Positions 4,501 through 64,000 of a DNA stretch of 64,000 nt are shown piece after piece. Under the pieces are notes generated by a model. The model worked only from the letters and a program-made list of their open reading frames with translations. It was not told where the DNA came from and made no database searches. Position 1 is the first letter of the stretch. Each line of letters opens with the position of its first letter. The stretch is from Lytechinus pictus (lineage: Eukaryota): contig NC_087251.1 of the NCBI RefSeq assembly GCF_037042905.1, positions 29,266,001 to 29,330,000 of the forward strand. Reading direction: 5' to 3'. A program made the translations under genes and the position numbers.

Positions 4501-6301
4501 TGTGAAAGACGTGACCAGGGCTCGAACCTCGAACCTCTGCATCAATTTGTAACTTCCCCACATAGCTTGGATTACAGGCGCACGCCACAATGCCCAGTTG
4601 TGAAATGCATCAATAGTCTTTCCCAGGTGAGATGTCTACTTTTAAAGTTCTATATTCTTTCTCCAAACTGAAGTTATTTTCTAAATTGTTACCCCTAAAA
4701 GAAAAATACTTTGTATTCCATTTTTTTTTTTAATTCTGCTTTTGTAATACAGTAGGGCAAGGGCTGGCTAACATTTCTGTTATTGTGGTCCCAATTAATA
4801 TCTCTAATATATATTTTTTTATTGCCTGTATAAAGCCATGTGCATAAAATTCACACAATTTTCCCAGGAAAATTTCCACAAATTTTCCAGCCCTTTGCAA
4901 CCCTAGGCTAAATGTTGATCGAATCAAATCAAACTTTTCAAAATGCCCAATCATCATTGTCCAATACTTTAGTCTGAACAACTGTGTAAATTTCTGATTT
5001 GACATTGGATTGAAAGGTTAATTTGACCTTTCTGTTCTTATTTTGTGTTATTTCATGCACCATCCCAACTCAGCAAATCTATTAGTGCGTTATCATAATC
5101 TAAAGCAATACAAAAGCCTCTAAAGGAATATATAGTCTAATAACTCAAGGTAGACTGTATATATGCCAACTTGTGGGCATGATTTTTTTTTCTACTGCAG
5201 AAATAACAAAAGATATTAAATTTCAATCTAAGGTGTTTGGTATATTTGAATAAGAGTTTTCATTACAGAAGAAAAATGTGAGAAGATAGGACATTATTCC
5301 ATGTTAATACTACAACGAATTCAAATTCATATATACATGTACTATTCTTAGGCCAACTCCTATTGATACCAATAAAGATGATATAATTATAATAATAAAA
5401 TGAAAATTATTTAATAACAATAATAATAATAATAATAAATGAATAAATAGATAATAAAAAATTAATAATAATAATAAAATGACATTAATAATTATTTCAA
5501 TTATATAAATAAGAATAATATTAATAATACTGATAAAAAATAATACCAATAATTAATAATCAATATATAATTACCCGATGATACTGATAATGCATGATGA
5601 TGGTGAGAAGCTTCATTCCAATCACAATCAAACCCAGAACTCAGATGTAGAAATATTTGAATAATTGTCAGCAGAGTTTAATGATTGATAATGATGCTGA
5701 ATGATTCAACATAATCAGATATGTTTAATGTTTTACTATCAAAATAATTTATTGAAATAAACTGCACATCTAATGGCCACAGGTTATCTGTGATTCATTT
5801 CCATATGCATTTGTACCACCACAATCATCAACACGCAGAGATCATTTCCCAAATCCCGCATCCATACCCATGCTAAAACTTAAGTTCAAGTTCAAAGTTC
5901 AAGTTCAGCGACAAATGATGATTGTTGAAATTGCAATCACCAAGACATTACATTAGCTTAAATCTCTGCTCAGGGCCGCATAAACTACATAGGAGTAAAT
6001 AAAACAAGCTAAATTTTTTGGAAACCCTAAGCTATACTCCCCAAACAAACCCTGCTTGTTCAATTTCCTCACCTGATGCAAGATAATCTCCGCCTCTATT
6101 GCTGAACTCAATGGCGTTGACACAGCCGTAGTGCCCCAATAAATTGAGTCGATAGAATGGCTCTTTCCTGTGCATTGCATTGATGCGGCTGTTCAACACT
6201 ATTCTCGGTAAACTTGTGCAGCCATTCTGCTGTCGACGAGATATCATATGAGACAGTTCCGTCGCCTTTTCATAGCATGTGTGTGTCTTAAATCCCTCCA
6301 T
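1563..6301 (-). CDS. DCAF5: DDB1- and CUL4-associated factor 5 (WD40 substrate receptor), 5' part; gene continues left beyond the window
   Basis: Hand-spliced exons 6301-6073, 3914-3734, 3292-3153, 2321-2192 and 1776-1563. All introns are GT-AG and the phases are consistent (894 nt = 298 codons). Translation includes LLGHYGCVNAIEFSN-GGDYLASGGDDRRILLW, GEHHSNIFCLAF, HEDAVYGL, EPRFLATANAKEGIALWD, AMSVRFN-SGSQLLALRRRLP and YNSCTMKSCCFGGDRDQ, which closely match vertebrate DCAF5 as I recall it. The next exon was not found in 1-1562. Confidence 0.93.
2430..2975. mobile_element. Palindromic non-autonomous DNA element (MITE) in a DCAF5 intron
   Basis: The left end (gaaaatttcatcaaaatcagatgtaatataagaaagttgtgacattt) is mirrored by the right end (aatgccataactttcttattatacatccgattttgatgaaattttc). 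A related diverged copy lies at ~30440-30870. Boundaries approximate. Confidence 0.6.
3318..3496. repeat. (AAT)n / (ACT)n microsatellite
   Basis: Direct reading. It explains the poly-Asn ORF 3162-3557. Confidence 0.9.
4412..4598 (-). mobile_element. SINE-like element with 7SL/Alu-domain-like 5' head and (CA)n tail
   Basis: Minus strand reads ctgggcattgtggcgtgcgcctgtaatccaagctatgtgggg, resembling the 5' end of 7SL RNA. It continues with a B-box-like ggttcgagccc, an unrelated body (…gacgttaaaggtcggtccc…) and ends in (CA)n. Confidence 0.65.
5380..5570. repeat. Degenerate (AAT)n low-complexity tract
   Basis: Direct reading. Confidence 0.85.
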
Positions 6302-6490
6302 GTTTTCCTTACTTCCGAGTAAGAAGGAAAAGGCTAAGTCATGAAGGCGATTCTCAGCTTTTTACGAAAGATTTTCTCTCGAGTCGTCGCTTGCTCTACC
6401 AGACCAGTTCTTGGATTGTTTACCTTCGGACACCAGGGGCAGCGAAATAGCGATGCGAACGAACATTCAGCGACGTCTGCTGGGTGGCGG
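6302..6490 (-). promoter_or_regulatory. Putative DCAF5 promoter / 5' UTR
   Basis: CpG-enriched stretch upstream of the ATG, with an ETS-like acttccg (6311-6317) and a CTCF-like caccaggggcagc (6431-6443). Inference only. Confidence 0.4.
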
Positions 6491-8139: not shown

Positions 8140-8939
8140 AGTGTTAAAGTAATATAGGTGAGGTCAGGCGCGGTTCTAGACTTTTTTTGGGGGGAGGGGC
8201 TTCTGGGGGCTTGAACATTTTCGACGTTGGTTTATACAACACAATGAAAATTGCTTATTGTGGATAGCCTTATACATACTGATCAAGCAGCTAGTCACCT
8301 TCCCCGGCCCCTCGTATAATTTTTTTTGGTATTATCATGAGAGGGAGCATAGCGACCGAGCAGAAAAAAAAAATCGCATTTTCAAAATGCTTGAGAATTT
8401 TTCATCTATATTGTGCATAAAGGCCTGATGGGTGTTATGGAGATGAGGACATTTAACGATAAGGGGGGAGGGTAGGACTAACTATCAGGAAATGGGTGTT
8501 TGTTGTTACTCTCTCCAGGCGTTTTTTATAGACTTTTAATGTAAAAGGTGTAATAGAACGTGACCGGATATAAGTATTGGGTATACGGAAAACATATCTA
8601 TTTGCTCTGCCCAATAAAAGAATCCATTGCAAAAATGTGTTTGAAAAAAAAAACATCTGAAAGCGCTATAAAACCACCAAAATTGACACAAAAATACTAT
8701 TAAACACATAAAATTGTGAATTTTTTGGTCTGCTTCACGTGCAAAATTCTGCATTGTAATTTGGCGCAGCATATAATTTCATGCATTTTGGGGTTTCAAT
8801 TTAGTTTAACTTCTCAGAGTGGTAGGCTCTACTAAAATTATGTGTGCGGTATCGAGCTGTAATTTCTCTACCAGGGGCGGATCAAGCTTTCGCCAATAGG
8901 GGGGGGGGATATTTTCGTCTATAATTATGTTTCCCGATC

Positions 8940-9985
8940 GGACATTCTAAGCACTTTTTGCAACCGTGAACATCATGGGTTTACGTATATCTAAACGACA
9001 TTGATGCAAGCGCGAAACGCGAGCTGAAAAATTTTGGTATTCTAACCTAAAATTTGGACATTCTAAGCACTATTGGTAATCATGAACAGGATGGGTATAA
9101 ACAAAGTTATACGAGCGCGAAGCGCGAGCTTAAATTATTTGATATTCCGACCCAAAGTTCGACATTCTAAGCACTTTATCTCACCATGAACAGGATTGTC
9201 ACCTTATATTTCTCAACATTTTATGCGAGCGCGAAGCGCAAGCTGACAATTTTTGAATTTCCGACCCCAAACTGGACAATCTAAGCACTTTTTGTAACCA
9301 TGAACAGGATGGGTATATATTTAAATAATTGATGCGAGTGCATAGCGCGAGCTGAAAATTTTTGATATTCTGACCTAATATTTTGACATTCTGAGCACTT
9401 TTGGTAATCATGAACAGGATGGTCATCTAACTTAGCAACAGATGCGAGCACGAAGCGCAGGCTGAAAAATTATGAGATTCTGCCTGAAAATGTTGACATC
9501 ATAAGCATTTTCTGTAATAATGAACAGGATGGACACCTAATTAATCGATGCGACATGCGAGCACGAAGCGCGAACTGAAAATTTTTGATATTCCGACCAA
9601 AAACTTGTCAATATAAGCACATTTTTTTTTACCACGAACAGGATGAGTATCTATCTAAAAAAAAATTATATTCTGATTTAAAATTTGGACATTCGAGTAT
9701 GAGCATTTTTGGTAATCATGGACAGGATGAGTATCTAACAAAACATTTTATGCGAGCGCGAAGCAAGGGCTGATTTTTTTTATCTTTCTACCCAAAGTAG
9801 GACATTCTAAGTACTTTTTTCTAACCATTAACAGGATGGTCACCTTACTAAACAATTGGTGCGAGTGCGAAGAGCGAGATGAAAATATCTGATATTTGAC
9901 CTAAAATTTTGACTTTCAAAGCACTTTTGATACTCATGAACAGGATAGGCATATAACTGTAAGCATTTGATGCAAGCAAACATGA
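8940..9985. repeat. ~80-bp tandem array (gacattctaagcacttt…catgaacaggatgg…gcgagcgcgaagcgcgagctgaaaa)
   Basis: About a dozen diverged copies read directly. The same unit occurs at ~12000-13450, ~17200-17440, ~40950-41700 and ~42850-43320. Confidence 0.85.
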
Positions 9986-10019
9986 GTTTGCCCCCCCCCC
10001 CTTCCCCCATGACGCCCCC

Positions 10020-10995
10020 GGTCAAACATCAAATTGGAGCACAAAGGTCGAATATGAATTTGGCGCCCCCTCCCTATATAGGTTGAACATGAATTTGGCG
10101 CCCCCCCCTTAGGTTAAACATCGATTCGGCGCCCCCTATGTCGAGCATCAATTGGACGCCCCTATGTCGAACATCAATTCGGCGCCACCCTAGGTCAAAC
10201 ATCAATTCGGTGCCCCTAGGTCGAACAACAATCCGGCGCCAACTATAGGTCGAACATAAATTCGGCGCTCCCTATATCGAACTTCAATTCGGCGCCCCTA
10301 GGTATAAGAACATCAATTCGGCGCCCCTATGTCGAACTTCAATTCGGCGCCCCTATATCGAACATCAAGTCGGCGCCCCTATATCGAACATCAATTCGGC
10401 ACCCCCTAGGTTGAAGGTCGATTCGGCGCTCCCTATATCGAACTTCAATTCGGCGCCCCTAGGTCGAACATCAATTCGGCACCCCTTGGTAGAAAATAAA
10501 TTCTGCGCTCCCTATAGCGAACTTCAATTCGGCGCCCCTAGGTATAAGAACATCAATTCGGCACCCCATGGTCGAACATCAATTCGGCGCCCCTATGTCG
10601 AACTTCAATTTGGCGCCCCTATGTCGAACATCAAGTCGGCGCCCCTATATCGAACATCAATTCGGCACCCCCTAGGTTGAAGGTCGATTCGGCGCTCCCT
10701 ATATCGAACTTCAATTCGGCGCCCCTAGGTCGAACATCAATTCGGCACCCCTTGGTAGACAATGAATTCGGCCCCCCCCCCGGTCGGACATAAATTCGGC
10801 GCCCCCTATACATGTCAAAAATCGATTCGGCGCCCCTATATCGAACAAAAATCCGGCGCCCCCTAGGTCGAACATAAATTCGGCGCTCCTTATATCGAAC
10901 TCCAATTCGGCGCCCCTAGGTCGAACATCAATTCGGCACCCCTTGGTAGAAAATCAATTCGGCCCCCCTAAGTAAAATATCAATTCGGCGCCCCT
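10020..10995. repeat. ~21-bp minisatellite (gtcgaacatcaattcggcgcccct[a])
   Basis: Dozens of tandem copies with some higher-order re-duplication. Same unit at 41720-42130. Confidence 0.92.
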
Positions 10996-13477
10996 TTCCC
11001 TCTTCTTTTCCCCCTCTCTCTTCCCCCTTTTCCCTTCTTTCCCTCCTTTTTTCTCCCCCCTTTTTCCATTTATTTTCTTCTTCTTTTTGGCGCCCCTTTT
11101 TCGCCTACCCGGTCCCCGAAACCCCCTCCCCCTGAATAAGTGCATGATTACCTATAATGTGTTTAATCAATCCGGGAGTATATAGCGACAGAGCCGTTTT
11201 CTTTAAAAAAAAAATGTCCTAAAGAATGACAAAAATTCGCAGCGCTTTTGAGAAAACACGGACAGGTTAAGAGTTAAAACTTTAATTTTATGGCATTAGT
11301 ATTGTTATATTCGTGGTTATAATTATATAGGCATTGGGAAGTTAATTTTGAAGAAAAAAAAGTTGCAAGGCAGTGTATTATATTGCAGGATATAATTGAC
11401 ATCCTATACTCGCGCTAACTCGTATTGAATGTATTCTGCATTTAGATTATATTTTGCGAGGGAGCGTTTAGCGACCGAGCGAGAAAATTTTCGAATTTGA
11501 GTTGTAAAAATTTTTGATTTTAGGAGTACTTGACGACATGAATGGAATACTGCATTAATCAATACATATCATATGTAAGAATACAGGGCAAACATTTTAT
11601 CTTTTTTTTCTATGTAGTCGAATTTTTTGGGGATCTTGAGCAATATAATTATAAAGATCAACCAGAATTGTATGAGGAACGAAATGTCTAATTTTTGACA
11701 TTTTCAATAAGATCGAAAAGTGTTCATTAATAATTACTCCTAAAAAATGAAAAAAAATTACTTGTTTTATGATGTCCATCAAAAGATTTGTTGCAGACAA
11801 ACCAATTATGTTCAATTTACTCATTCATTGTTTGCTGATGAGACAAGATTATTATTATTTTTTATATGTGACTGTTGTTTCATTAACAAAGAGTGAAAGG
11901 ACGAGACTTGACGAGTTATTAGCTATATACATATCAATAATATAAACAGCTTGCGTGAAAAAAAATTTGGTCAGTATATCAAAATTTTCAGCTCGCGCTT
12001 TACGCTCACATTAATGTTTATATCCATTTTTTAAGGATTACATAAAGTAAATAGAATGTCCAGTTTTTAGGTCTAAATCTAAAGAAATTAATCCCCGCGT
12101 AAAAATTGTTTATTCTTGTCCTTTATTATTTTTCAAGACAATCTTAAACTGTTCATTTTTTTACATCAGAATGTAACAAACAATTATCTTGCGCTCGCAC
12201 CAATAATAATTCCATATTGTTCAAGATTACAAAAAGTGCTTAAATGTCCCATTTTTAGGTCTAAATCACCAAAAGAATTCAGGTCGCACTTTGCTCTCGT
12301 ATATAGGCTACTTTATTATTTGTTTTTAAAAGTGCTTATTGTCCATTTTCAGGTTTCAGCTCGCGTATCATTCGTGCTCTCATTGTTCACGGTTACAAAA
12401 TGTGCTCAGAACGTCCAGTTCTCAGGTCAAACGTTTTAAGTTTTCACGTCGCTCTCGCATTATGTGATTGCTGAGTCACTGACAGCCCTTAACAGCCTTC
12501 TTCTCATGTCAGTTTATAACAGCTCGCGGTTTGTGCTCGTTTTGATCGTTGAATAAGATGTGCATCTTGATCATGATTACAAGAAATGCTTAAAATGTTC
12601 AATTTTCAGACTTGAAGACGTGAAATATAGAAAACATTGAGCTCATTCCCCGATCAGCCACTCAAAGTTGATTTTTGTTTGTTTATTTGAAGAGGCAGTC
12701 CTAACAGTCACTTCATAGCTTTATTCTTGTAAAACAACATAAATGTGTGATAATCTTATAAGTTTTATTTAAATAATGCAAGCGCGAGCTAAAATTTTTG
12801 GAAATTTCATGTATTTTGTCCTGAAAATTAAACATTCTGGGCAATGTTTGTGATCCTGAACAAGAATCTTATGTAACTAGATAATTACTAAGAGCGCGAA
12901 GCGCGAGCAGAAATTTTCAATATGCGTTACATGGCCTGATCGAAAAGGAACAAGGACTTTTTGCAGTTAGCTATAAAGACGATACATATTTCAACGATTT
13001 AATAATGCGAGCGCAAAGCGAGAGCTGAAAATTTTTGATATTCCGACCCAAACTTAAAATGGACATGAAGCACTTTTTGTAATCATGAACGGGATAGGTA
13101 TATAACTAAACAGTTGATGCTAGCGGAGAAAATGAGATTTCAGCCCTACAATAATTGGACACTCTATTCATGTTGGGTAAATCATGAAAAGGGATGGGTA
13201 ATTTGGTATTTTCTTACATTAATAATGCAAGCACGAAGGGTGAGCAGAATTTCTTTTATATTTTGATCTGAAACTAGGCCTGAAAACTGGACATTTTAAG
13301 CACTTTTGTGAATATGAATAGGATCAATGGGTTAATATATTTTAAGAATTAATGCAAGCGCAAATGGCGAGCCGAAATTTTCGATAAACTGTCACAAAAA
13401 TGGATTTCAAGGAATAAATAAAGATGTATACATAACTCACCAATCAAATTAAATGCGAGCGCACGGCGCTAGTTCAT

Positions 13478-14246
13478 AGCAAGGGCGGTTGAACCGGGGG
13501 GCAGGGGGCAAGTGCCCCCCCCATTCCCCTTAGGAAAAAAATTCCCTTTTTTCAAAATGGCAAATGCCCTTTTTCAAAATGAAATGTGCCCTTTTTCAAA
13601 ATGAAATACCCGTTTTGAAGCAAAACATAATAAAATCAAAAATCGCATCACTGAATTATTGTTTAGTATAAGGTTTTCGTCCCGTTCATGGTTACAAAAA
13701 TGCATAGAATGTCCGAGTTTACAGGTTGGAATATCATACATTTTTGGCTCCTGTTTCTCGCTCGCATCAATGATTGTTTATTAAGGTACTCATTCTGTTC
13801 CTGGTTACAAACAGTGCTTCGAATATCGCGTTAATTCTTTAGTTAGATTCACATACTTTTTTCATGATTACAAAACTGCTCGAAATGTTTACTTTTCATG
13901 TCTTATTAAATTAAATTTCCGAAAGTTTGAGTTTGATTCGCGCTCGCAACATCGCGCAAGGACATGCCTTAAGGTCCATAATTGACCGAAAAAGCGAGTT
14001 TTACAACTTCAGATTTGAAATTTTTTAAAACGCTCGCTCGCAATGAAATAAAACCTAAATCTTATCAATCAGAAATCACTTCAAAGAAAACTTTGCTCAA
14101 GTTTATTTCTTTCTACAAAACACACAACTTCTTCACACAGATGATAATCTCATGGTGAAAATATATGCTTGCACCAAAATGCCCTTTTTGGCATATAGGT
14201 GCCCTTTTTTGTCTTTGCCCCCCCCCCAACGAAAATACGTTCTGCA
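13478..14246 (+). mobile_element. Non-autonomous DNA element; second copy inverted at ~42497-43482
   Basis: Shared terminal blocks: gggcggttgaaccggggggcaggggg… and …cacagatgataatctcatggtga…gaaaatacgttc. Their reverse complements are at 42506-42632 and 43450-43482. Confidence 0.6.
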
Positions 14247-14464
14247 AGGCCCCTCAGGCCCACTGGATCCGCTTATGTAATAAATGTCTTTTTCTCTCTT
14301 ATCAGGGCCGCGGAAACGGGGGGGGGGGCTGGGTGGGCTTCAGCCCCCCCCCTTTTCCAAAACTGTGTAAACAAAAAAAAAACGTTAAAATTACCATTCT
14401 GATTGTCACGGTGATTTTTTTGCAAGGTCACTTTTAATTCTAAACTGTTACGCGGCCCCCGGGC

Positions 14465-17400
14465 GCGAAATTATTTTTCCCACCGAGTTCTGGACCAACA
14501 TATGAATATTCATGACTTGCGTCTTCGGATTAAGAGTACGCATGCGCGTGGACTCTGCATTCACGTTCAGTTGCTCAGAATGAATATTAGCATCGTCAAA
14601 TTACCGGTACTCTTACATAGTTACATATGCCTTATATATATCCAATTCTTAAACACTTTTCAAACTAGCTGCCATTAATGGCAAGACATGTGCTAGGCTA
14701 GGGCTCGCTTAGGCTAGCGCATTAACTTTACCTCAAATCTGGACCTGTCTAATGCCTATGTACTAATCAGTGTTGTAGTGCCTTGGCCTTGAACATTCAA
14801 GCCTTGGCCTTGGCCTTGAGGATTTTGAGCCTTGAAATTTCAAGGCATTTTCAAGGCATTTTGTATTATGTACTTTCATTTGTTTTATAAGTAATTATAA
14901 ATGTTTCAGTTTTTTTTAAAATATTTAATGACACTATAATGGTCAATACTACCAGTCACCAGTAACATTAGCAGCAGCAGCAGTAGTAAGTGTACTAGCA
15001 GTGTCATCGATTGTAATTGTCACCATTATCAAGAATTTTCAAACAAAGAATACATCAGTTATGAAAATTAGCATTATGTATTGGTAATGTGTTGTAATCA
15101 TGACTAATGATGATAATGACAGTAAATAATAATGATCAAGATCAAGATAATAGTGCTTTGATGACAAGAATAAATTTGACATCTGACTGCAATTTTGACA
15201 AAAATGTTCGTACTTTAAACATAGCTAACTCTAAAGCACGATAACAAGGTTGATTTCTATTCCATTAGGATTTTCCTTGTATTATTTTCTTTGGCCAACA
15301 AGAATGTTTTAAGTCTTCATGATATTCTGAAAAGATTTGGTAAGCTTGAACACAGTCTTCAATTTTGTCATATCCAAATGGGTTATGTCAATGGCATGAT
15401 GAGCCAGAAACTTTGAGGGGCCAAGCATGGCATATAGAGCAACATTTCTGTCCAAAAAAAAGAAGAAAGCGATTGAAGCGAGCGAGTGAACAAAATTTGT
15501 CCCCCTCTTTCTATAGGAAAAGCTAATTTTGCGATAGATTGTTTAAAAAATAATATCACATTTACTCCATCTTTTCCTTTCCCTTCCCCCCTTATCTAAG
15601 TGTATTCTTGGTGGTAGAACTTCTTCTTCTCTCTATCTCTTTTCTAAATTGTATATTTGTTTTGGGTCAGATTGACAAAACAAAGGGGGAAAATGTTTAC
15701 TTCTTTTTAATCATATATCGTTCAACAGTGAATTTCATTTCTCTACAGTTTCAAGGAAATAAACAACGTATTTGTTTTTGTGTCAATATGGTTTCAAGAA
15801 ATAATGATTAATAAAAAAATAGTAATTGAATAATTAATTATTATTAATATTATCAACAAGTATTAATGATGGCAAGACATGTCCTAGGCCGCATACATTC
15901 GTAATTCCGAAGCTTCGTTATTCCGAAGGTTCGGATATTCCGAAGGTTCGTTATTCCGAAGGTTCGTATTTCCGAAGGTTCGTAATTCCGAAGGTTCGTT
16001 AGTCCGAAAAAGAAATGAGGTTCGTAATTCCGAAGGTTCCTTAGTCCGAAAACGAAGTGAGGTTCGTAATTCCGAAGGTTCGTTAATCCGAAAACGAAAT
16101 GAGATTCGTAATTCCGAAGGTTTGTTAGTCCGAAAACGAAATGATTAACGAACCTTATTTCGTTTTCGGATTAACGAACCTTCGGAACAACGAACCTTAT
16201 TTCGTTTTTGGATTAACGAACCTTCGGTACATCGAACCTTATTTCGTTTTCGGATTATCGAACCTTCGGAATAACGAACCTTCGGAATAACGCCACAAAT
16301 GTTCGGATTAATAAAGGCAATTTTCGTGTTTCGAAATTACGAACCTTCGGAATAAAGAACCTTCGGAATTACGAACCTTCGGAATTACGAAGTGTAACCG
16401 TGCTAGGCTAGGGCTAGCTTAGGCTAACGCATTAACTTTACCTCAAATCTGGACCTGTCTAATGCCTAATACTAATAGTAATAGCCGACTAATGCCATGG
16501 TTTAAAACTTCGAACCAAATTCCGAACTTTACGTTTGATTTTATTTAACATGGTTTAATATTTCTAGTCCGTATACAGAACCAGTCCTAGATCTAAAAAA
16601 TATCTTAGTTCTAGTCTAGTCTCTAGATCTAGACTCTGATCTACGCTGTATCAGCATGGAACAACTAGTGTACCAAGGGGGGGGGGGCGCAGACTGCCCC
16701 CTGACAATTTACAACTGATCCAGGGGACGTGCCCTCCCCCCTTTGAGAAGCCAAATCAATAATTTGTAATGTCAAAATGCAACAGAAAAAGACTTATGTC
16801 CCCTCTTTTGAACGTGAAGATCTTTTTTTTTTTGCTTGTCAATTATTTTTCAGCTAAGAAATCCTTAATTTGGGGGGGAAGACGGGGATCAAGATCACTG
16901 ACGTTAGTTTGTGCCTGACGTTATAATACGTTCCATGCAATGCAGTGGCGTAGCTAGGATTTTTTTTATGGGGGGGGGGGCACTGGGGGGTCCTTGCTTT
17001 TTCGGGGGGGGGGGGCCACCGGCCATTTTTTCCGGTGTGTGTGTATGTGTCACGAGGGCGGATCGGACTTTCGCCAATAGGGGACGGGGCCCGAAATTAT
17101 TTCACCTATGTTTTCCCCGATCAGTCACTTCTTAGTTTTATTCTTATAAAACAACATAAACATGAAATAATCTCATAAGCCTTATAAAAAGTGTGAGCAC
17201 AAAGCGCGAGCTCAAAAATTTGTGATATTCCAACCTGAAAACTGGACACTCTAAGCATTTTTTTTTGTGAACGGGAAGAGATCGAGTACAATAATTGATG
17301 CGAGTGCAGGAAGCCAGCCAAAAATTTGTGATATTCCAACCATTAAGCAACATTCTATACATTTTTGTTACCATGAGCAGGATTAGTACTGTACTAAACA

Positions 17401-19267
17401 ATAATTGATGCAAGCACGATTCAAAATCTGTGATTTTCGAACCTAAAATGTATTATGTTTTATTATTAAAGAAGGTATATTTCTTTTTTAAAAAGGGCAT
17501 ATTTCATTTGGAAATAAAAATCCTACAGGGATTTTTTTTTTTGGGGGGGGGGGGGGCTAGAGAGCACAAAACGCAAGTTAAAATTTTTAAATGCTTAAAC
17601 TGAAAATGAGTCATTTTTTAGGACTCTTGTCAGCTTTCTTTTTTTTTCTGCTTACAACCACTTTTAAATTTCAATTCTCATTTCTTGTATCTTCTACACT
17701 TATTTTACCTTAAAAAAACAGAATAAAGAATACTAACAAAATAAAGTTATATTCAAAAGGATATAAAGTAAACAGGGCGCACCCCATACCCTTAGTTGGG
17801 AGAGGGTAAATCTTAATTATTTCTTTAAACAGTTAATCAATCATTAATTATTAATACTTGTTGATAATATTAATAATAATTAATTATTCAATTACTTTTT
17901 TTTATTAATCATTATTTCTTGAAACCATATTGACACAAAAACAAATACGTTGTTTATTTCCTTGAAACTGTAGAGAAATGAAATTCACTGTTGAACGATA
18001 TATGATTAAAAAGAAGTAAACATTTTCCCCCTTTGTTTTGTCAATCTGACCCAAAACAAATATACAATTTAGAAAAGAGAGAAGAAGAAGTTCCACCACC
18101 AAGAACACACTTAGATAAGGGGGGAAGGGAAAGGAAAAGATGGAGTAAATGTGATATTATTTTTTAAACAATCTATCGCAAAATTAGCTTTTCCTATAGA
18201 AAGAGGGGGACAAATTTTGTTCACTCGCTTGCTTCAATCGCTTTCTTCTTTTTTTTGGACAGAAATGTTGCTCTATATGCCATGCTTGGCCCCTCAAAGT
18301 TTCTGGCTCATCATGCCATTGACATAACCCATTTGGATATGACAAAATTGAAGACTGTGTTCAAGTTTACCAAATCTTTTCAGAATATCATGAAGACTTA
18401 AAACATTCTTGTTGGCCAAAGAAAATAATACAAGGAAAATCCTAATGGAATAGAAATCAACCTTGTTATCGTGCTTTAGAGTTAGCTATGTTTAAAGTAC
18501 GAAAATTTTTGTCAAAATTGCAGTCAGATGTCAAATTTATTCTTGTCATCAAAGCACTATTATCTTGATCTTGACCATTATTATTTACTGTCATTATCAT
18601 CATTAGTCATGATTACAACACATTACCAATACATAATGCTAATTTTCATAACTGATGTATTCTTTGTTTGAAAATTCTTGATAATGGTGACAATTACAAT
18701 CGATGACACTGCTAGTACACTTACTACTGCTGCTGCTGCTAATGTTACTGGTGACTGGTAGTATTGACCATTATAGTGTCATTAAATATTTTAAAAAAAA
18801 CTGAAACATTTATAATTACTTATAAAACAAATGAAAGTACATAATACAAAATGCCTTGAAAATGCCTTGAAATTTCAAGGCTCAAAATCCTCAAGGCCAA
18901 GGCCAAGGCTTGAATGTTCAAGGCCAAGGCACTACAACACTGATTAGTACTAGGCATTAGACAGGTCCAGATTTGAGGTAAAGTTAATGCGCTAGCCTAA
19001 GCGAGCCCTAGCCTAGCACATGTCTTGCCATTAATGGCAGCTAGTTTGAAAAGTGTTTAAGAATTGGATATATATAAGGCATATGTAACTATGTAAGAGT
19101 ACCGGTAATTTGACGATGCTAATATTCATTCTGAGCAACTGAACGTGAATGCTTACGACCAGCACTGGTCGAGGCAGAGTCCACGCGCATGCGTACTCTT
19201 AATCCGAAGACGCAAGTCATGAATATTCATATGTTGGTCCAGAACTCGGTGGGAAAAATAATTTCGC
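14465..19267. mobile_element. 4.8-kb non-autonomous Mutator/foldback-like DNA transposon with ~1.4-kb TIRs and 9-bp TSD
   Basis: Arms 14465-15867 and 17850-19267 are reverse complements with only scattered SNPs and small indels. The identical 9-mer CCCCCGGGC flanks both ends (14456-14464 and 19268-19276), exactly where the inverted match stops. No transposase ORF. Confidence 0.85.
15890..16400. mobile_element. Foldback MITE built from 16-bp tandem units (ttccgaaggttcgt(t/a)a) in inverted arrays
   Basis: Left half carries the units on +, right half carries their reverse complement (taacgaaccttcggaa). Flanked by tcctaggc (15882-15889) and tgctaggc (16401-16408). The empty site is visible at 14678-14700. 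Confidence 0.85.
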
Positions 19268-19429
19268 CCCCCGGGCGCGGCCCCTGTGAATATTGTGTCT
19301 CGCTCGCTCACAAATTTTAAAATTTTAACACCCCAAAATCTACTGAGATATTGTTTGAAAATTAATTTGAAAAACACTCCAAGCAGCTTTTTCTAAAGTC
19401 TTTGTTTACAAGTACCATGGCATATTCGG

Positions 19430-19609
19430 TTGTATTCGAAAGAATACCACTGACTGGTCATCACTGGAGAAGACAAGCTCCTCGAGCGATTTGATGAAGT
19501 CCGCCCTCTAGCGATTTGAGCAGCACAAAATATCTGACAAAACAAATCGTCTTTCGCTCTTCCTGAATATTCGGCTTCTTGTCTTTCAATGAAGTTTTGA
19601 TAGATTAAG
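19430..19609 (+). promoter_or_regulatory. Putative CRIPT promoter / 5' UTR
   Basis: CpG-enriched, repeat-free stretch directly upstream of the ATG. It has a CTCF-like motif ccgccctctagcga at 19501-19514. Inference only. Confidence 0.4.
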
Positions 19610-22600
19610 ATGGTGTGCGAGAAATGTAAGTAGACATGCCGATGATTTCGCATTTTATAAATTATATCTATAGTAGTGAAGTTTCATTGTTTAAAATTGA
19701 AACTCACTTTTTTGGCCTTTTTTGTAATGTATTTTTGGTTTTGGTTTAGGGCTTAAAGTTAAACACTACACAGTTTTCAATATGTGGGCAAGTGGAGTGA
19801 TAGCGGATCCTTGACTTTGAGTTTGTTATTATTGTTGATATCAATGACTTGTAAGCTTCCTGTATTTCAAGCCTGTCTTTAAGGAGAAGTTAACCCTAAC
19901 AAAAAGTTTATTTATAAAACTAGCAGAAAAAATAATGAAAAATATTGCTGAAGGTTTGAGAAAAATCCATGTCCAAAACACGAAGTACCGTCCATAGTCG
20001 TACTCGTAGACGTAGTGGTTTTCAGCAATCCTACAAGAAGCCACCGGGAGTTACACTTACAGGCTTGCGCCTTCATCCTGTACCAGATGATGATGATGAT
20101 GATGATCAGTCTTGTAGTCGATTCACCATGGTCCGAGTCCGAGTCACCAAATTAAAATGTCATATTTTAATTTGTTTACTTTAAACCTTTTAAAATTACT
20201 TTAAAGTTTTAGTTTGACATCATACAATCAATCAAAAACAATCACTCACCCAATCAACAATTGTCAATTGATTCAAATCAACAAATACTTTATCAATTAC
20301 AATTAAAGAGAAAAAATGACAAAGTAAAGGGAAAGCTGTTGACTTTGAGGTAAATAATAATTTATGTACAGTTATGAGTTAACTCTGCGTAAGTCGAAGT
20401 CGCATAAGTCGAATAATCAGAACATCCAGGACTCGTTTGCAAATATCAGTGCCTGCAAGAAATACAACATAATGTGTCTTTGATGCCACAGGGTCTTACC
20501 CATTTCAAGATTTTACAAAAGCATGAACAATTTGTTGCTCTTCATTCAAACATCATTACATCAATAGTACCATCTTTACAAATATGTTGTGTACAAAATT
20601 TGTAGAAAATGTATTACTCTAAACAAATGATACCAAATGTTCCTACTTTATTCAATATCATGTGTTAAATATCAATGAAAAAATTTGAAAACTTCAAGAT
20701 GTAAGAATCTCAGAAACAAGGATTTTATATCTTAAAAAGAAAAAAAGAGAGAAAGAAACAGTTCAACTGAAGTGTGATTTATAGACTGCCGAGTTCGCCC
20801 TACGATACAGCCTAGTTACCCTTGCACTCGTATACACAATACATGCAGCTGCACAGTGCAATGCAATGATGTGCACAGCTTTTAGCGTTGAGGCAAATCA
20901 TGGGCAAATCAACTTTATTATCAATCGTAGGATATACATTTTCCATGAAATATTATTGGAAAAATACTTCAAAATAGTGAATAATACTGACTATTAAATT
21001 CACCAGATTAGTATTAAATCTTCCTGCCTCGAGCCGAGTCATCGAGGCCGCATGCTACGAGGACGAGTCCGAGTCACGGCATTACGAGGCCAAGGCAGAG
21101 GACTGGCAAAGCCTGCCTCGAGACCTCCAAGACTGATGATGATGACACAAATTTGAAAAAAAGTCACTGAGTCTGAAAGTTCAATACTGTAGGGAGTGTA
21201 GAAGCTAGAGATCTAGACTATTACTTAGACCTTAGTATTTGAATTTTAATGATATGATTTGTGACGTCATATGCTAGCAGCTTTACTACAGTACACATTG
21301 TATGGAAAAAATCAATGAAATGAAATATAATTTTCTCAGAAAATTGAAAATGTTTTTTACGGTATGTTCAGTAGACAATAGACAAATTATTTCACTCCCA
21401 ATTCCCGTTCCTAAAAATGAAATAAAAATAAGTGAGTCATCACAGACCATTATTTAAAAAAACTTGAAATTCATGCATTTTAATTTTTATATTACAAAAC
21501 ATATGGGACAGCTGTTCGTTTATGTCACAGATCCAAAACTTAAAATTCTAATAACTTTCTTAATCTTTCAAACCTTCACTGATATTTTTAATTATTTTTT
21601 TCTGCTATTTTTACAACAAACTTTCTTCCGGGTGAAATTCCCTTTTAAGTTTAACTTCAACTTTATTCTAAGTATAGCTCGGGTACCCCCTCCCGGCCTC
21701 CCCCAAGTACATCGAGGCCTATCACTGCACTTTTCCATTTCATAAATGTCCTAATACTGTCTGTATTGATGTGAATCATGGAAGGTATGAAAATGAATTT
21801 ACAGTCAGTAGACTCGTATCTAGATCACTCATTCAATGAACAAGGTCTAGATTTACTCGATCATTTTGGTAGGGTGCCCAATGGTATATCTGCAATTTCC
21901 CCCTTTTTTTTCACATGATATGAAACCTGGTTCAAGCAAAGAATGGGCTGAAAATATTCAAGATGTAGATCTATTAATTGTATCTTTCTTTGTTTCTGAT
22001 AATACACTAACTTAAGTAAATGTTTACCTACTTTCGTTTAACTACATGTAGTGTTCAACTTCAAGGAATCAAGTATTTTTTAAGAAAACATTGCAGAGAG
22101 AGAGAGAGAAAGGGTGCTAGATACAAAAACCAAGCCAAATTTTAATTCTAATGGTTGAAGAAAGACTTAATGGTCACTATACTTTTGTAAGGTTGGATTG
22201 TTGGATGATACACAAGTATAATTCACTTTATTGGCCCTTTAACTTTAAATGTTTCACCAAAGCCTTAGACAGGCTCTTAATAACCAAACTTGGCTTGCTT
22301 CAGAATTGTTGTAACTAGTTTTACCAAGGGCAGCTCATCATTGATGATGATCAGTCTTTTAGAATAATTGACAAAAGTGAGTGTATGATCACCTTCATCT
22401 AGGCTGCATTAATTATTTGCTTGTCAATTCCATTTTCTAACTATTTTTAGGTGAAAAGAAACTTGGGAAAGTAGTAACACCAGATCCATGGAAAAAAGGA
22501 GCAAGGAACACGACAGGCAAGTGGACTTTGTTTTGTTTTTTTCTTTTTAGCATACCAGTTTGTATGTAAAATTTTGCAGTGAAATTTTTTTGTAGTGACT

Positions 22601-29290: not shown

Positions 29291-32200
29291 TTATTTGGTT
29301 TGAGCCTGCTTCGATCCACGCTTCTGCATCAGTTTGACGGCCCTATGCTTCTGGATGAACTCGTGCAGGCGGGATTTCTTGCCGCCTCTCTTGAGCTGGC
29401 CTGCCGGTCCCCCTGCCAGCTGGTTGTTCATGGTGTCGTCGGATGACTGATGCCGTAGCTGAATCTCCTGTAAGGTCGCTGGAACGGTCGGATCCTTCAC
29501 GGGGGTCAGGTTGGTGAACGGGAGGGAGGAGTATACCATCACCTGTGCACACACAAATGATATATCCGTTATTGTAAGATGAAGTGGATACTGATTGGTA
29601 AAGGGCACACGCATGACAATGATGTATAAGTTCACCTATGACCAGTGATGAGCAGTTATTAAGCAAAGTATTATGATCAGTTTGGGTATGAGGGTGGTTG
29701 ATGAGACATAAAGGATACACATTATTTTATGAAGTAAGTATAATAACCCACACTTGGAACCTTTGAAACAGTCAAAGCACCCTCAGTACAGTTCCAAAGG
29801 TACCTTGTGCGTAAACATTTCAGTGACCTGAAGAATATCTCTGTTTAAGCTTACCTTTACAGCATTCAAGTGTAACCTGGAAACAAAACTTTATTTAATT
29901 GATTTATTGAAAATTTTAATCAAAAAGCTGCAGTTTGACAAATTAATTTTAGCTATGTACAGCAAATCAATTCATACTTTTCTCAAGAAGCAGACCAACA
30001 ATCAAGACTTATACTGACCTTAGTACTTATAATTGGTTACAATTGCCCCCTATGGCAAGCTGGAAATATTTATTGATGTGTTTATTGGTTGAGAATATTA
30101 CCTTACGTGTGAATTTCACTAATTATTGGGAATTGGGCAAGAATGTGTTCATATCTACTGCTGATGAGCCACACAAAATGAACATTTTCCTGTGGGTTTT
30201 CGTCAGTTGGTCTCTTAGTTTCTAGTTCATCCGACATTGGTATGGCTTAACCTATATTCTGTGTCCCAGTGATAAGGTCCGATTGCCATTTGGTCTAACT
30301 GTCATTTATTCTAAATCACCATTTTGGCTAGTGACTGTTAGCTACGACTAAATGCCACTATTTGATTTCTCCCCTTTGTGTCTAACAACTATTTAATTTA
30401 ATACCAGTTAGTCTAAATGGTGGTAGACCAAGAGGCTGTTTAAAGGGGTAAATAATTATATCTGAATAAATAAGAGTAAAATTCACAGAGCAAAATGCTG
30501 AAAATGTCATCCAAATCTGATAAAGTAATTGAAGTTTAAATTTTAGCAATATTTTGTGAAAACATTTATATGCATGTTCTGATGAATTTTCATTTGGTGG
30601 ACTGATGTCACTTTCCCTTATGTCACATAAAATCATATGTTATATTTTCATATATGTGTGTATATGTCTCCCTTGCAACAAAATAAGTAGGAGCAATGGA
30701 TATCTTATACATTAAATTGAGTAATTTCATGTAATAAAACACAAAATAATAAGTGCGGCTATGACATCATTAGCTTTCTCACTGTATATTCATGAAGAAA
30801 TGCATAGAAATTAATGTTTCACCGAAATAATCTCAAACATTAAGCTGTCATAACTTTGCAGATTTCTTGTATAATCACACTGAATTTGATATTCAAAGTG
30901 TATGCGATGAAATGAGCGTAATTATTAAAAAAATCTGCATAGTCCATGATTTTGTACCATGGTACCTTTCAAAGCTCTTTCGAAAATATGGTCCATTATG
31001 TCTCAGACTCTATCAAACTCATGATAGGGAAAAAATGTTGCTCAGCCTTGCTCAGGCAAAGCAATGACTTACCTGACTTTGATTGTGTTTGATATCTGGA
31101 AGAATTGGAGGCATCTTATGCCTGGTCTTTGGTTTGTAAGACTTCCCTAAGATGGAGCTCGTACCCCAAGAAGACTGCCTCTTCTCTTCGGCCTGTTCAA
31201 TATCATCCACGCCATCACTGTTGGAATTGGAATCTTCAAACTCATCTTGTCGGATCTGCTTCCGTCCAACAACCATCATGATCGTCTTGGCAAGTCTGGT
31301 AATGAAAAACCACACCACACGCATAAGAATACATGGATATCTATCTCAAAAATTTGACGCCACTTATAACCATATTTTTCATGTAATGGTAATTTGATTT
31401 CCTATCATGTTACAATAGAGTTTGCTGAATTTGGTATTTATGTGCTTGCTGTATTTCCCATATTTTTCTTAAATCTTGTTAATGGATAAATTTGTAACAT
31501 AGTAGCTCATTGTCCATTGAGAATATCTAACCCATTTAGAAAGAAAGGCCATCTTTCAATATATTTGCATTTTCTGTATTCCCTTGAGTGACTTTTACAA
31601 AGGTTTATATTTATTGGTCTATAAACAGTTGTTTTACTTCTCATATAGTCTAATACCACATTCGCTAAACCCACTTGTCTAATATCAATTTAGTCATATT
31701 TCTGTTTGGTCTATTATAATACTACACTTGGTCTAATATCCAGTCAGTCTATTTCTCATCTGGCCCTTTTTCATAAAGAACTTTTACAAGAACAAATGCA
31801 CAATTTCCATATAAAATTTACTATCAGCCAATCGGATTGAAGGATTTCAGTAGCTTTTAACTGTTATTGCAAATTTGTTACTATAACGAATTCTATGAAA
31901 CGGTTCCCTGGTCTAACAAATTGGGTATTGACTAACTGGAATAAGACAAAATGGTAAATGAGGTAAATAGCAATTCTTACCAGTTGGTAAATAACAGTAT
32001 TAGACCAATCCAAGTAAATGAACTTGTTGAAAACAAACTAGAACTAGACCATGTGTGGTAAGACAAAACGGAAATCAGTAGAAGCTGGCGTAGACCAATT
32101 AGCATTTTACCTTTACAGAGAGATTTTGAGTGTACTTACTTCCATCTTGGGTTGTTTCCTCCATTGAGGACCTTGAGGGTTACAGCTGAAGCTACCCTCT

Positions 32201-35200
32201 GAACATCACGAGGAATCACTCGGGATAGACTACGAGGGTCAATCTCATCGGGCAGTTTAGGCCATCCACCTTTCTGACCAAACGTACCTGGATACGTGCC
32301 ATAAAATAAAGGAAAGGTCATTTAGAAAACGAGGATCATAATGACTTGTAGTATAGAGTTGCAGTATGATGTTTATGAAAAATGCAGACTTCTACAAGCT
32401 ACGGAGGAGACGTTCTGCAACAATGCAGTCACAGGGAGGAAGCTACTTGAAACTCCACAAAATATGATTTTTTTTTTAAAGAGCGAATGTAGGGTCACCG
32501 TAATGATAATGTGACAGCACTTGTAAATAATGAAGATAACTTAAATAGAGAATAAAGAACTGAAAAATAAATGAAGCATGTTTCACTGCTCAGGAAAGGT
32601 TGATTTTTAACTAGTTACACAAGAAATGCTAGTGCCTACCTATGTATCTACCGCATACAGTCCAGAGCCTGATGGAATAGTCAATGCTTCCAGTTATGAT
32701 CAGGCGCTTGTCTTCAGCATAATCAACGTATGTAATTCCTTTGAGATGAGCCCGGAAGGAATTGAGTTTGGGCGGGAAGAGCAATGTGTCCTTTGGGTTA
32801 CTCTGAGGTGGAGGTTGTTTCATGTTGGCTCGAGATCTCATCTCCTTCCTTAGAGATAGCTGTTTGAGGGTGCTGTTGCCCGATAGGTATGGATATTCCT
32901 TTTCTCGTTCATTGTAGTCAACTTTTATGTTCTCTCGCTCGCGACGAGCCATCTCTCGCTTACCGATGCAGTATTCCGAAATGTCCCATACCTGTAATAG
33001 TATACACAATTTCGAAGTTTAAACCTTGTTCTACAAATTATTGAATGGAAACAACTCAATCTTATTAAGAAGATATTTATAGTTTGCTCATACAATGTTG
33101 ATATCTTTTGAAACCCTCCCGCAGCAGGTCCTAGTCTTGGTAACAAACTTAGAGACCCCACATTCAAAATTATTAGTCTTTCTGTTTTACTATCTGGAAG
33201 TGGTGGCAGCGGTGGGATAAACCAAAGCTAATATTCAATACTTCGGTTTAACTTATATTGTGGTTTAAAGTTTTGATGTTGATTATGAAAAGCCACATAT
33301 GACATAAATCTCAAGGAGCATAGGTACACATTAGAGGACATTTATTAGCACTCCAATTTTATCAATTTTCTGTAAATGCTAACTCAAGTAGTTTTATTGA
33401 TAATTACAGCATGAGGAAAGAGCAAAATCAACTTACAAAACATAAAAGCGTAAACAAATATTTTGCTTCAGAGTATTTCAATACAGATTTATAAATGACT
33501 TGAGTAATATCAGAGTTTATAACAGCTAGGGTCGTCATGTTTAGAATAGACCTGCTGAGGAATGATCTTTATTTTTAAAAAGTAAAACACTCTAAAAGTT
33601 AGGTTATTAATATTAGCATAAGAATGGTAAATACCTTAGCATATCCTAATGTATCAGCTGTAATGAGGATCTCATTCTCAGAATCTGTAGCCATTGCTAG
33701 CACGGATTCTCCCGGTTTATGAGCAGCATTGAATTGCCCTAGGAGTCCTCCTTTGTGATGGATGGACCAAGCTCTGACCCAGCCTTCCGATCCACTCGCC
33801 ATCAGAGTTGCCGTGTCTTTGTCGTTCGTCCGTGATTGAAGAAATAATAGCTGCAAAGGAAGCCATGATATCAGTAATTTACTGCAATTGCATTTCTATA
33901 AATATGAAATAATTTATAATGTTTATTTATGTCAGCATCCACTGAAGTAAAATAAAAGTCTGAACCCAGGGTAGCCACTTCAGTTCCAAAACTGTTCTCC
34001 CAGTGGGCCCTAATATTATTATTACCCCGGCTTTAGCTGGGTTGCCTAGGTGCTCAAGCTCAATTTCTATCTCTATGGCAATTGATATTATTTCTTGTGG
34101 AAATGAGCAACAACTTTTTTGAAAAGTAGAACCAGATTGGTATGCCGTTACAGTCAATAGTATATAATTTGGTCGAAATGAAAGACACTGATCTAGAGAG
34201 GCAGGATCTGAGAGCGCATTGAATATTCTACCTTGTCAACTGAAGCTTCATGTTTCCTGACATAGTCTTCTCTGTTCTTTGCACCAAGACAGTAGGAACT
34301 CTCTCGTTTTGGCCGGTCACTTTGGTCCTTCTCTCTCCTCTCCTTTCCTTTGGCATTTTTGGCATTCTCCTTTTCTCTTGTCTCAGTTTCATTCTTTTGC
34401 CGAGAATCTTTGGTTCTTGGTCCGATGCTTTCTGTAAAGAAAGTCTGTGATTCTTCCTTGAGGTTTGCAGCCCGCTCCTGTATCAGACCAACTTTCTGAG
34501 GATCTATTGCTGGTAATTTAGTCTTTTCATCCTCGTCATTTGAGACAGACAACTTGGCAATGTCATTTGAAAGACTTATATTGTCACCATTCTCTTGGAC
34601 GCCCTCCCCGTTAAGCTTGTCCCTTGAACTACTTCTCGTAATTGTTGGAAGTCTTGAGGAGCTACTGGAATAAACGGATGTGTCTCCATTGGTATGGAAG
34701 CTTGTCTCACGGGAAACGCTCAGCATGCGTGAACCTGTCTGAGGTTTGACCCCCTCGAAGGCATTCAGCTTGCACAGAGGGTGTGTCGTCTCTAATGACC
34801 ACACCCAAATGTCGCCGTCGTAGGATGACGTTGCGAGTGAACGACTGGTGTTTGAACATGCAAGGCTGAGGATATCTTCATTGTGCTTGAGTGCCCATTG
34901 ACGTGTGTCCTCATCGTCATCGGAATCACTGCATAAAAGGGGGGAATTATGAGAACTCAATTTTATCATTTTTTTTTTACTACAGATGATCACACAACAC
35001 CAGCAAAGTGAAAAACATAAGTATGACGTGTAAGTGATATTATTATATTAATTATGATGGAAACTTGATGCGATGACATGCATAAACAACCAAGATCAAG
35101 CCCCACGTACCATGCCTTTTGTATTTACTAAGCAATTTGCTTTAAAGAAATAATTAGATTTGTTATCCCATTATAGTTTTATCTCATAGCACTCACATGT

Positions 35201-62800: not shown

Positions 62801-64000
62801 CACCGCTTTCACCATATTAAAAATGAAGAGTCTCTATTCATTTTTATAACGTGGGCATGTATTTCGCCTATGTCACCATATTGAAATCGGAGAGTTTCTA
62901 GTCATTTCGTAATTTTTCTAGCATGTCTGTGTATCCCACCGCTGCCCCAATATGAAGACTTTAAAGTTGATAGTCATTATTACAGTGTGAGTACGTACTC
63001 CTAAGGTTAATATGGACGACAATAATGCTTATGAAGGAACATAAACTAGACAAATGAACATTCTCAGTATAATAATAATAAAGTGTGAAATAGTAATATA
63101 AATCAAACTATATATTTACATAATGACATCAAAATTCAAAGTAAAAAATTGCTTTATCACAGTCTTTAGTGCAAGATGGCACAATGAAAGGTGACCATTA
63201 ACATGATTAATGGAGTGAATGAATGCTAAATATTGTGGATATGATTACTGAAGTACACTAAGTGCAGTTACATGTGCGTTCGTGTTGGAGATGGGTTGAA
63301 TAATTATTATCAACTTATTGACTTACTTCATCCTGTCGTTGGCAATAGAAGCATGTAAAATAAACAATACTTATTTCTGAATGGAACATATCAAAGGAAG
63401 CCTTATAATCTTGGAGAAAATTAATCATTACCTCCACTCTTCCAACCCACATCCATTGTTCATCTGGCAATTCGACTCAAGTGCTTTCAAAGTGTCTTTT
63501 ACTATTTTTATGACTAACAAATCGTCGTGTATATATCGGAGAATATCACGGAAAATGTAAGATCAGCGACATCATTATTGAATCTTCATGAATATTAAAA
63601 GCGGCTCCCTAATTTATGAATTCGGGGTTCAACAGTTAAATTTATTGCTTCTACGAAAGCATAATTACGTTCTTAATTGTAATACTGTGTAAGGTTTATA
63701 TCAATATCATATGAATAAAATTGATCTGCCGAGATGAATTAAAATGTTTAAAATAACAACTGTCTAATCTTGAAATCTTGTCTTTTCATTATTTTGGTTT
63801 TGCAAAAATGAATATTTATGTGAGTTTGGTAATTTCTAACAATACAACGAAAGAGATACGACATGGACTCACAAGCCGGAAATCATGGATATAAGATGTA
63901 ATCTTCATGTATATCCTATTCAAATCAGGAAACTTGACATTGCATTCAAAGATTTTCGGATAAATACCGTCTGCTCTCACCACTTGATTTGAGCAATTTT

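Follow-up and report, generated by a model that had tools for sequence, protein, structure and literature searches.

A probable non-autonomous DNA transposon of Mutator type with kilobase inverted arms upstream of CRIPT in Lytechinus pictus

TU of Strongylocentrotus purpuratus, described by Liebermann et al. in 1983, reportedly combines long modular inverted repeats with a variable middle and with outer domains made of short tandem repeats. Such an element is of interest for comparison with a 64,000-nucleotide stretch of Lytechinus pictus DNA (contig NC_087251.1, positions 29,266,001 to 29,330,000; hereafter the window, in which all positions below are given), where two kilobase inverted arms lie upstream of the gene CRIPT. 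Among better-known systems, lengthening of terminal inverted repeats (TIRs) by recruitment of internal sequence has been proposed for Galileo, and long TIRs are not diagnostic of a superfamily (PMC3573991). Mutator-like elements (MULEs) with three TIRs exist in plants (PMC3310237), and fold-back RNA made by read-through has been discussed for MULE TIRs (Dupeyron et al. 2019, PMC6446971; Muta1, PMC5225508). We conclude that 14465-19267 is most probably a 4803-bp non-autonomous cut-and-paste DNA transposon, Mutator-type in its working. The element is ordinary in kind and neat in anatomy, and none of its features calls for a new element class.

Boundaries and repeat behaviour of the element

Alignment of the left arm (14465-15867) with the reverse complement of the right arm (17850-19267) showed identity in 1389 of 1395 ungapped columns (99.6%). 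The arms differ by six substitutions, all of them more than 670 bp away from the tip, and by four indels of 23, 1, 6 and 1 bp. The 9-mer CCCCCGGGC stands on both sides, at 14456-14464 and 19268-19276, with no third occurrence on either strand of the window. Near-identical inverted arms and a perfect 9-bp direct repeat had been reported in an earlier reading made without database searches (the sequence-only reading), and both were confirmed. Its statement that the inverted match ends exactly at the 9-mer did not hold: aligners run on to 14457/19275, and the direct repeat really totals 12 bp, with the flank repeating the first three bases of the element. Several boundary readings compete because the junctions consist of C and G only and the 9-bp target-site duplication (TSD) is almost palindromic. 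When all boundary pairs with a direct repeat of at least 4 bp were tried, 14465/19267 was the sole pair with no mismatch in the outer 20 bp of the arms, giving tips of the form GCG...CGC. The alternative at 14457/19275, with a 6-bp repeat, has two mismatches in these 20 bp, and readings with a 7-bp TSD require a tip mismatch or an indel.

The 1982 bp between the arms are not mirrored. The longest Met-initiated frame inside the element encodes 76 amino acids (aa), and none of its 33 stop-to-stop frames of at least 50 aa rose above the Pfam cut-off, either for a transposase or for a THAP domain; lack of a transposase in these frames is expected because the copy is non-autonomous. The earlier description of a middle of about 2 kb without a transposase reading frame is upheld by these counts, except that the middle is not featureless, holding a diverged third module and a nested foldback. 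An Rfam search of 14000-20000 returned nine matches, none at the gathering score and six of them within the nested hairpin. A captured host gene, as in Pack-MULEs, was considered and rejected: MOZ_SAS appeared in two mirror frames at sub-threshold scores (16.5-16.8 bits against a cut-off of 32.2), and these frames had no match in the Protein Data Bank at E values up to 10. A Leader_Erm match in Pfam was likewise rejected as below cut-off. The element may contain a captured untranslated region (UTR) or an unannotated exon.

Parts of the arm were found in 20 of the 23 listed sequencing runs, from nine studies and under three organism labels; only one run holds at least half of the arm's words. 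Four of the 23 (X1, X5, X7 and X21) were compared with 17560-20000, a stretch containing the right arm only. X5 and X7 are DNA runs and X1 and X21 are RNA-type, the RNA status of X1 being a guess. Summed contig depth, which is not equivalent to copy number, ranged from 502 to 117888 over 17 arm bins in X7 versus 25-34 on the CRIPT promoter; it was 113-1675 over the arm bins of X1 and 12-79 over 16 of the 17 in X5. The arm behaves as a repeat family in independent runs. The terminal 23-mer had no exact match in viral contigs or in metagenome contigs, and the literature searched, which did not extend to Repbase and Dfam, held no description of this family.

Record 16 of X5 fits 19073-19267 and then continues for exactly 30 letters in a different flank; the overlap between records 15 and 16 is likewise 30 letters long, and therefore the graph of what would be a k=31 assembly appears to branch exactly at 19267|19268. 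A second junction thus leaves the arm at the same base as the tip of this copy (one record, X5). Record 24 of X7 (659 letters, depth 29.8) fits 19281-19648, while its first 302 letters are absent from the compared stretch; it shows a CRIPT promoter that lacks the end of the element. Records from three runs cross the right inner junction: record 1 of X1 (two differences in 202), record 9 of X5 (one in 248) and record 19 of X7 (23 differences and nine gaps in 220). The repeat behaviour, the second junction and the promoter contig speak for a mobilised, non-autonomous long-TIR element rather than a chance inversion, as the sequence-only reading had proposed.

Several observations weigh against the 4803-bp transposon as delimited here. 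In X5, one arm bin stands at 0.08 and the CRIPT promoter has none. Among the matches listed there is only one other junction, and no record spans the element or bridges the right outer junction of this copy; the left outer junction lay outside the compared stretch. The X7 promoter record starts at 19281 rather than 19268, and hence gives no precise empty site. Pfam found no transposase in the element's frames, and no partner was found, no genome-wide search for one having been made. Finally, the 9-bp boundary leaves 13 extra bases in the tip of the host repeat, in the form of an 8-bp duplication around CCGGG (second copy at 19276-19283), and requires an earlier event.

Elsewhere in the window, a 538-bp element at 38560-39097 has CCGG(G)n ends, inverted arms of at least 46 bp and a perfect 8-bp TSD (38552-38559 and 39098-39105). 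Judged from the sequence, the 13 extra bases may be a candidate footprint of an earlier CCGG-ended element of this kind, for which a source is available because one sits at 38560-39097.

These extra bases are the main attraction of placing the ends of the same mobile element further out, at 14457-19275, with a 6-bp TSD or a nearby 4-8-bp variant, since outer boundaries restore the tip of the host repeat without them. The element would then belong to a non-Mutator superfamily or be a Tm1-like sub-TIR MULE, and the C/G-rich 8-9 bp would be imperfect or asymmetric TIR tips. The X5 bases past 19267 match the left 9-mer at 8/9 in inverted sense, as an extension of the TIR would, and Tm1 is described as carrying asymmetric 7-bp tips inside its TSD (PMC3169594). 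However, outer boundaries place two to three mismatches, or else an indel, within the outermost 9 bp, although the 670 bp that follow are without substitution, and they turn a perfect 9-bp direct repeat into a coincidence. The X5 contigs branch exactly at 19267|19268, and the CCGG-ended sibling with its 8-bp TSD offers another source for the extra bases. We therefore regard these outer ends as improbable.

The arms and the middle are both patchworks of host repeats, and the intergenic stretch before CRIPT is crowded with repeats, as would fit older repeat-rich DNA enclosed either by a local inverted duplication or by an arm-sized repeat that inserted twice, independently and in inverted orientation. 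Yet a single TSD brackets both arms, with none at the inner arm ends; both inner junctions are present in other runs, and the tip of another copy departs at the same base, which makes an origin other than as one unit even less probable than outer ends. An assembly artefact, with the mirror arms created by a palindromic read or by joined haplotypes, would be compatible with the matches listed, no record of which spans the stretch, and with the listed runs, none of which exceeds 0.51 of the arm words. But the arms differ by the six substitutions and four indels given above and enclose a non-mirrored middle of 1982 bp, a perfect direct repeat around the arms is not the product of a fold-back read, and both inner junctions occur in independent runs. 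An artefact is accordingly the least credible of these explanations, and we give it very little weight. We retain the transposon bounded at 14465/19267 in what follows.

Anatomy of the arms and the insertion site

Within the arm, 19178-19232 is common to wider relatives. On the inner side these depart at 19178 in X1 (five records), X21 (57) and X7 (41). On the outer side, the subterminal sequence goes on past 19232 in diverged form in 37 X7 records, and past 19226, 46 X21 reads continue into a different end that finishes like the tip of a CAGGGG-type miniature inverted-repeat transposable element (MITE). Because the wider relatives leave the arm at 19178 and beyond 19226/19232, the conserved TIR is about 90 bp long. 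The first 100 bp of the left arm have an observed/expected CpG ratio of 1.39, and the core TIR contains a 12-bp palindrome; it may resemble NRF1 and octamer sites. As a separate observation, this core (19178-19232) is shared with an abundant related family, and the X21 ends suggest an exchange of termini between families.

Outside the core TIR, the arm is a patchwork, probably of captured host repeats; like such repeats, it varies widely in depth, which along the mirror copy of block U in X7 swings from about 500 to about 118000, more than 200-fold. The third module, M', matches the arm copies of M in 89 of 93-94 columns (95-96%), versus 99.6% between the arms. All three module borders carry the motif ATTAAT: it opens M, closes the left arm and stands at the inner end of the right arm. 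The left inner junction, between the arm end and M', is visible in X1 as a joint 19031 -> 17850 at depth 158. The 23-bp hairpin of the right arm sits between GC dinucleotides, and the long form is also present in X5 record 16. Because the hairpin is found in both, a deletion in the left arm is indicated; it was probably lost there by slippage, as the GC microhomology in the sequence suggests.

We propose that the 1.4-kb arm is probably a core TIR of about 90 bp that was lengthened and copied from one end of the element to the other. From the anatomy, the ancestor would have had short TIRs, with the flanking domain and module M, and block U confined to its right side. If the left end was then repaired with the right arm as template, the flanking domain, M and U could have been copied. 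A return of the template at the ATTAAT microhomology before the old left module would have left that module behind as the diverged M', and the lengthened form may then have spread as a small family. Arm identity is not taken as a clock here, as conversion can homogenise arms and differences may be inherited from a donor.

The element nested in M' lies between two direct copies of a 9-mer that differ at one base (15881-15889 and 16400-16408). Its predicted fold reaches -307 kcal/mol (z -26.9), and none of 100 shuffled sequences was equally stable. This nested 510-bp element, rather than the 4.8-kb element, is a classical foldback. Its spacers measure 14-28 nt, given which it is a better cruciform candidate than the large element. 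The positions of all parts are collected in Table 1.

Table 1 Parts of the element, its insertion site and the adjoining CRIPT region
Feature	Position	Strand	Basis
Putative MITE-like host repeat (CAGGG-type start), right end received the insertion	14303-14455	+	End comparison
8-bp direct repeat, first copy 14451-14458, with CCGGG spacer	14451-14463	.	Boundary enumeration
Left TSD CCCCCGGGC	14456-14464	+	Sequence, boundary enumeration
Left core TIR (~90 bp), palindrome 14502-14513	14465-14556	+	Loose ends before 19178 in X1, X21, X7
Left arm, flanking domain	14557-14674	+	Arm self-alignment
Left arm, module M, three copies in element	14675-14770	+	Arm self-alignment
Left arm, inner block U: AT-rich host-repeat patchwork, ends in ATTAAT at 15862-15867	14771-15867	+	
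Diverged third copy M', interrupted by nested element	15862-16480	+	Alignment to arm copies
Nested 510-bp foldback, 16-bp and 42-bp subrepeats	15890-16399	.	Self-alignment, Tandem Repeats Finder
Rest of middle: host-repeat pieces including ~110-bp repeat family; non-coding	16481-17849	.	Self-BLAST, Pfam, Rfam
Right arm, reverse complement of left	17850-19267	-	Self-alignment, sequencing-run comparison
23-bp hairpin, right arm only	19153-19175	.	Arm alignment
Right TSD CCCCCGGGC	19268-19276	+	Sequence, boundary enumeration
Putative displaced tip of host MITE	19277-19286	+	End comparison
CRIPT promoter region, 5' UTR and coding exon 1 (ATG 19610, donor after 19625)	19287-19625	+	

For the insertion itself, a transposase encoded elsewhere would bind the core TIRs of about 90 bp and pair both ends. 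Integration at a 9-bp staggered cut, followed by repair, would produce the TSD, and the element would have entered a small host repeat at its GC-rich tip, some 250-300 bp upstream of the 5' end of CRIPT. The second flank, in X5 record 16, starts with GGCCGGGGG, an 8/9 match to the TSD in reverse sense. Of the 63930 other 9-mers of the window, seven match the TSD at 8/9, one of them, at 38558 on the tip of the CCGG-ended element, being the identical 9-mer. By our own arithmetic, targets that needed only to be all-GC would show an 8/9 likeness with a chance of about 4%. When a 20-base motif of the second flank was searched for, the window held no match at up to three mismatches; the motif's one metagenome match (L001), in unrelated GC-rich coding-like surroundings, was taken as chance and set aside.

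The two sites (n = 2) hint that the family prefers a short GC-rich landing site. Sequence-selective targeting by the family we nevertheless consider doubtful; it is at odds with the accounts of Muta1 and Tm1, which are without target preference, whereas the two sites here are alike (PMC5225508, PMC3169594). Equally tentative is a joint reading, in which a G-S-C-C-G-G-G-G-G-selective long-TIR family is steered into repeat tips near CpG-rich promoters, that of CRIPT among them, because the tips and footprints of CCGG-ended MITEs supply its motif, the arms record one datable template switch and the family is a major source of ADAR-edited double-stranded RNA (dsRNA). The joint reading draws on the two sites being 8/9 alike, on the identical 9-mer at the 38558 tip and on an editing-like excess in two RNA-type runs.

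RNA signal and genomic surroundings

Documented cases of hyper-editing include the purple sea urchin and, in frog, palindromic DNA transposons (PMC5625713). We counted places by kind of change in each of the four runs over the compared stretch. A>G plus T>C changes stood against G>A plus C>T changes at 102 versus 28 of 194 in X1 and at 88 versus 40 of 199 in X21; in the DNA runs the figures were 18 versus 19 of 75 (X5) and 66 versus 72 of 257 (X7). Fisher tests of RNA-type versus DNA runs gave p values of 7e-4, 2e-7, 0.03 and 8e-4. Private mutations of the window copy do not explain this contrast, because such mutations would show in all runs. X1 covers the CRIPT 5' UTR and exon 1 (bins 19528-19691) and neither promoter nor intron, as RNA would, and X21 reads lie on both strands of the arm. 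The A>G/T>C excess is a hint of editing, and it concerns the family, not this intergenic copy. Read-through RNA of family copies would fold back and then undergo adenosine-to-inosine (A-to-I) editing.

Against editing it must be set that the RNA-type and DNA runs are unmatched and carry different organism labels (one for the RNA-type runs, two others for the DNA runs), that the counted places are not independent, and that other repeats, present at either end of the stretch, contribute to the counts. Moreover, only 9 of 414 X21 reads are at least 99% alike (with ~6% of the run read), so the reads come mostly from other copies.

A cruciform of kilobase scale across a 1982-bp spacer is unlikely, and for the large element it was rejected, its arms lying 1982 bp apart. 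Of the earlier suggestion that the element could form a kilobase-scale cruciform or dsRNA, the dsRNA part has indirect support, at the level of the family and by way of the A>G/T>C excess.

CRIPT consists of four exons encoding a 100-aa protein, of which exon 3 matches PF10235 (E 1.2e-18). Measured from the ATG at 19610, the right TSD is 333 bp away and the arm tip 342 bp, in agreement with the distance of about 340 bp given previously, and a rough estimate from X1 coverage puts the 5' end of the gene near 19560. A divergent gene carrying the element in an intron finds no support, since Pfam returned nothing for the minus-strand frame of 96 aa at 19396-19683. The apparent first exon of a WD-repeat gene (6035-6361, minus strand), which has no Pfam match, stands head to head with CRIPT, and the roughly 13 kb that separate the two are mostly repeats. 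This gene is presumably DCAF5-like. Downstream of CRIPT, exon-like frames of a large WD-repeat protein gene occupy 29294-35047 and 46132-49519 (minus strand).

CRIPT intron 1 holds the end of a very abundant repeat at 19856-20000, with a summed depth above 130000 in X7 and above 1600 in X1, as well as short GC-richer segments, coding-like or of low complexity, at 21036-21135 and 19990-20145. Among other repeats of the window, 57041-62855 comprises about four tandem copies of a unit of about 1434 bp with 98-100% identity, each with an array of 61-62-bp subrepeats. Two similar composites, in which an array of ~110-bp repeats precedes one of 26-bp repeats, are found at 8872-11120 and 40800-43500, and shorter pieces of the 110-bp family at 12000-13900 and in the middle of the element (17190-17520). 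A foldback-like element with 16-bp subrepeats starts at 26690 and extends to 27000 or beyond; it has an inverted partial match 13 kb away at 40311-40363.

Comparison with known systems

In its leftover third module and the microhomology, this single copy preserves a trace of the passage from a short TIR to a kilobase arm, a route of lengthening that has been proposed for Galileo and is seldom visible in one copy. Lying 250-300 bp from the 5' end of a housekeeping gene, the element is probably a presence/absence variant. Should the target preference hold family-wide, this Mutator-like element would select its sites by sequence, in contrast to Muta1 and Tm1, and the preference would help to explain the stacking of such elements in MITE tips. 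Should the editing hold, the family would be a defined source of dsRNA.

Given the 9-bp boundary, membership of the Mutator superfamily is reasonably probable. It is unproven because it rests on TSD length and a G...C end, and kilobase TIRs also occur in other superfamilies (Galileo). IS3EU and GingerRoot have 6-bp TSDs; the 6-bp solution here carries two mismatches in the outer 20 bp, and the X5 junction disfavours that solution. As in MULEs, a TSD within 8-11 bp stands directly outside the TIRs (one TSD pair), and the TIRs are long, about 1400 bp with a core of about 90 bp, where tens to hundreds of bp are typical. As to dispersed copies and empty sites, the runs yielded one other junction (X5 record 16), which is not a complete copy, and one promoter contig (X7 record 24), which is no precise empty site. 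Very long inverted arms around a non-coding middle are shared with the foldback class. TIRs built largely of tandem repeats are not: Tandem Repeats Finder reported only an 11-bp unit in 2.3 copies per arm, and it is the nested 510-bp element that has tandem subrepeats (16- and 42-bp units). Of the MULE/foldback label originally attached to this locus, the Mutator half is thus plausible and unproven, whereas the arms are without tandem-subrepeat arrays like those of FB and TU. TU reportedly differs in the same respect, its outer domains being short tandem repeats. The 7-bp TSD and THAP P-type transposase of Galileo and the P superfamily were not found.

Like surveyed MULEs, the element has a 9-bp TSD within 8-11 bp, long TIRs, a gene-adjacent position and a heterogeneous captured interior; unlike them, its TIRs measure about 1400 bp versus 14-500 bp, and it has no DDE transposase (PMC6446971). 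Muta1 is described as having little or no target preference, whereas the two sites here are 8/9 alike (PMC5225508). The Tm1 Mutator/Foldback elements of root-knot nematodes share the 9-bp TSD, non-autonomous members and nested inverted-repeat insertions (PMC3169594). They differ in TIRs of ~14-bp tandem motifs, in asymmetric tips and in having no target consensus; the nested 510-bp element is closer to Tm1 than the large element is (PMC3169594). Plant three-TIR MULEs also carry extra TIR sequence inside one end, and acquired sequence can become part of extended TIRs (Ferguson and Jiang 2012, PMC3310237). However, the extra copy here is a subterminal module and not a full TIR, and solo-TIR elements of plants are said there to amplify rarely, whereas the extra-module junction here is deep in X1 (PMC3310237).

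Tetris of Drosophila virilis is similar in its TIRs of up to 1735 bp in several domains, its non-coding middle and its 8-10-bp TSD (PMC4079207). That report likewise gives no autonomous copy and a Mutator assignment by TSD only; unlike the present arms, those of Tetris contain ~220-bp tandem repeats (PMC4079207). Two-TIR copies of Galileo in Drosophila mojavensis have gained TIRs of up to ~1260 bp via internal sequence, in the arrangement TIR1-F1-F1-TIR2 (Marzo et al. 2013, PMC3573991), and, as here, the longest TIRs are in non-coding copies (PMC3573991). In contrast to Galileo, a member of the P superfamily with a 7-bp TSD, the element upstream of CRIPT combines a 9-bp TSD with a host-repeat patchwork and a leftover third module that marks the switch point (PMC3573991).

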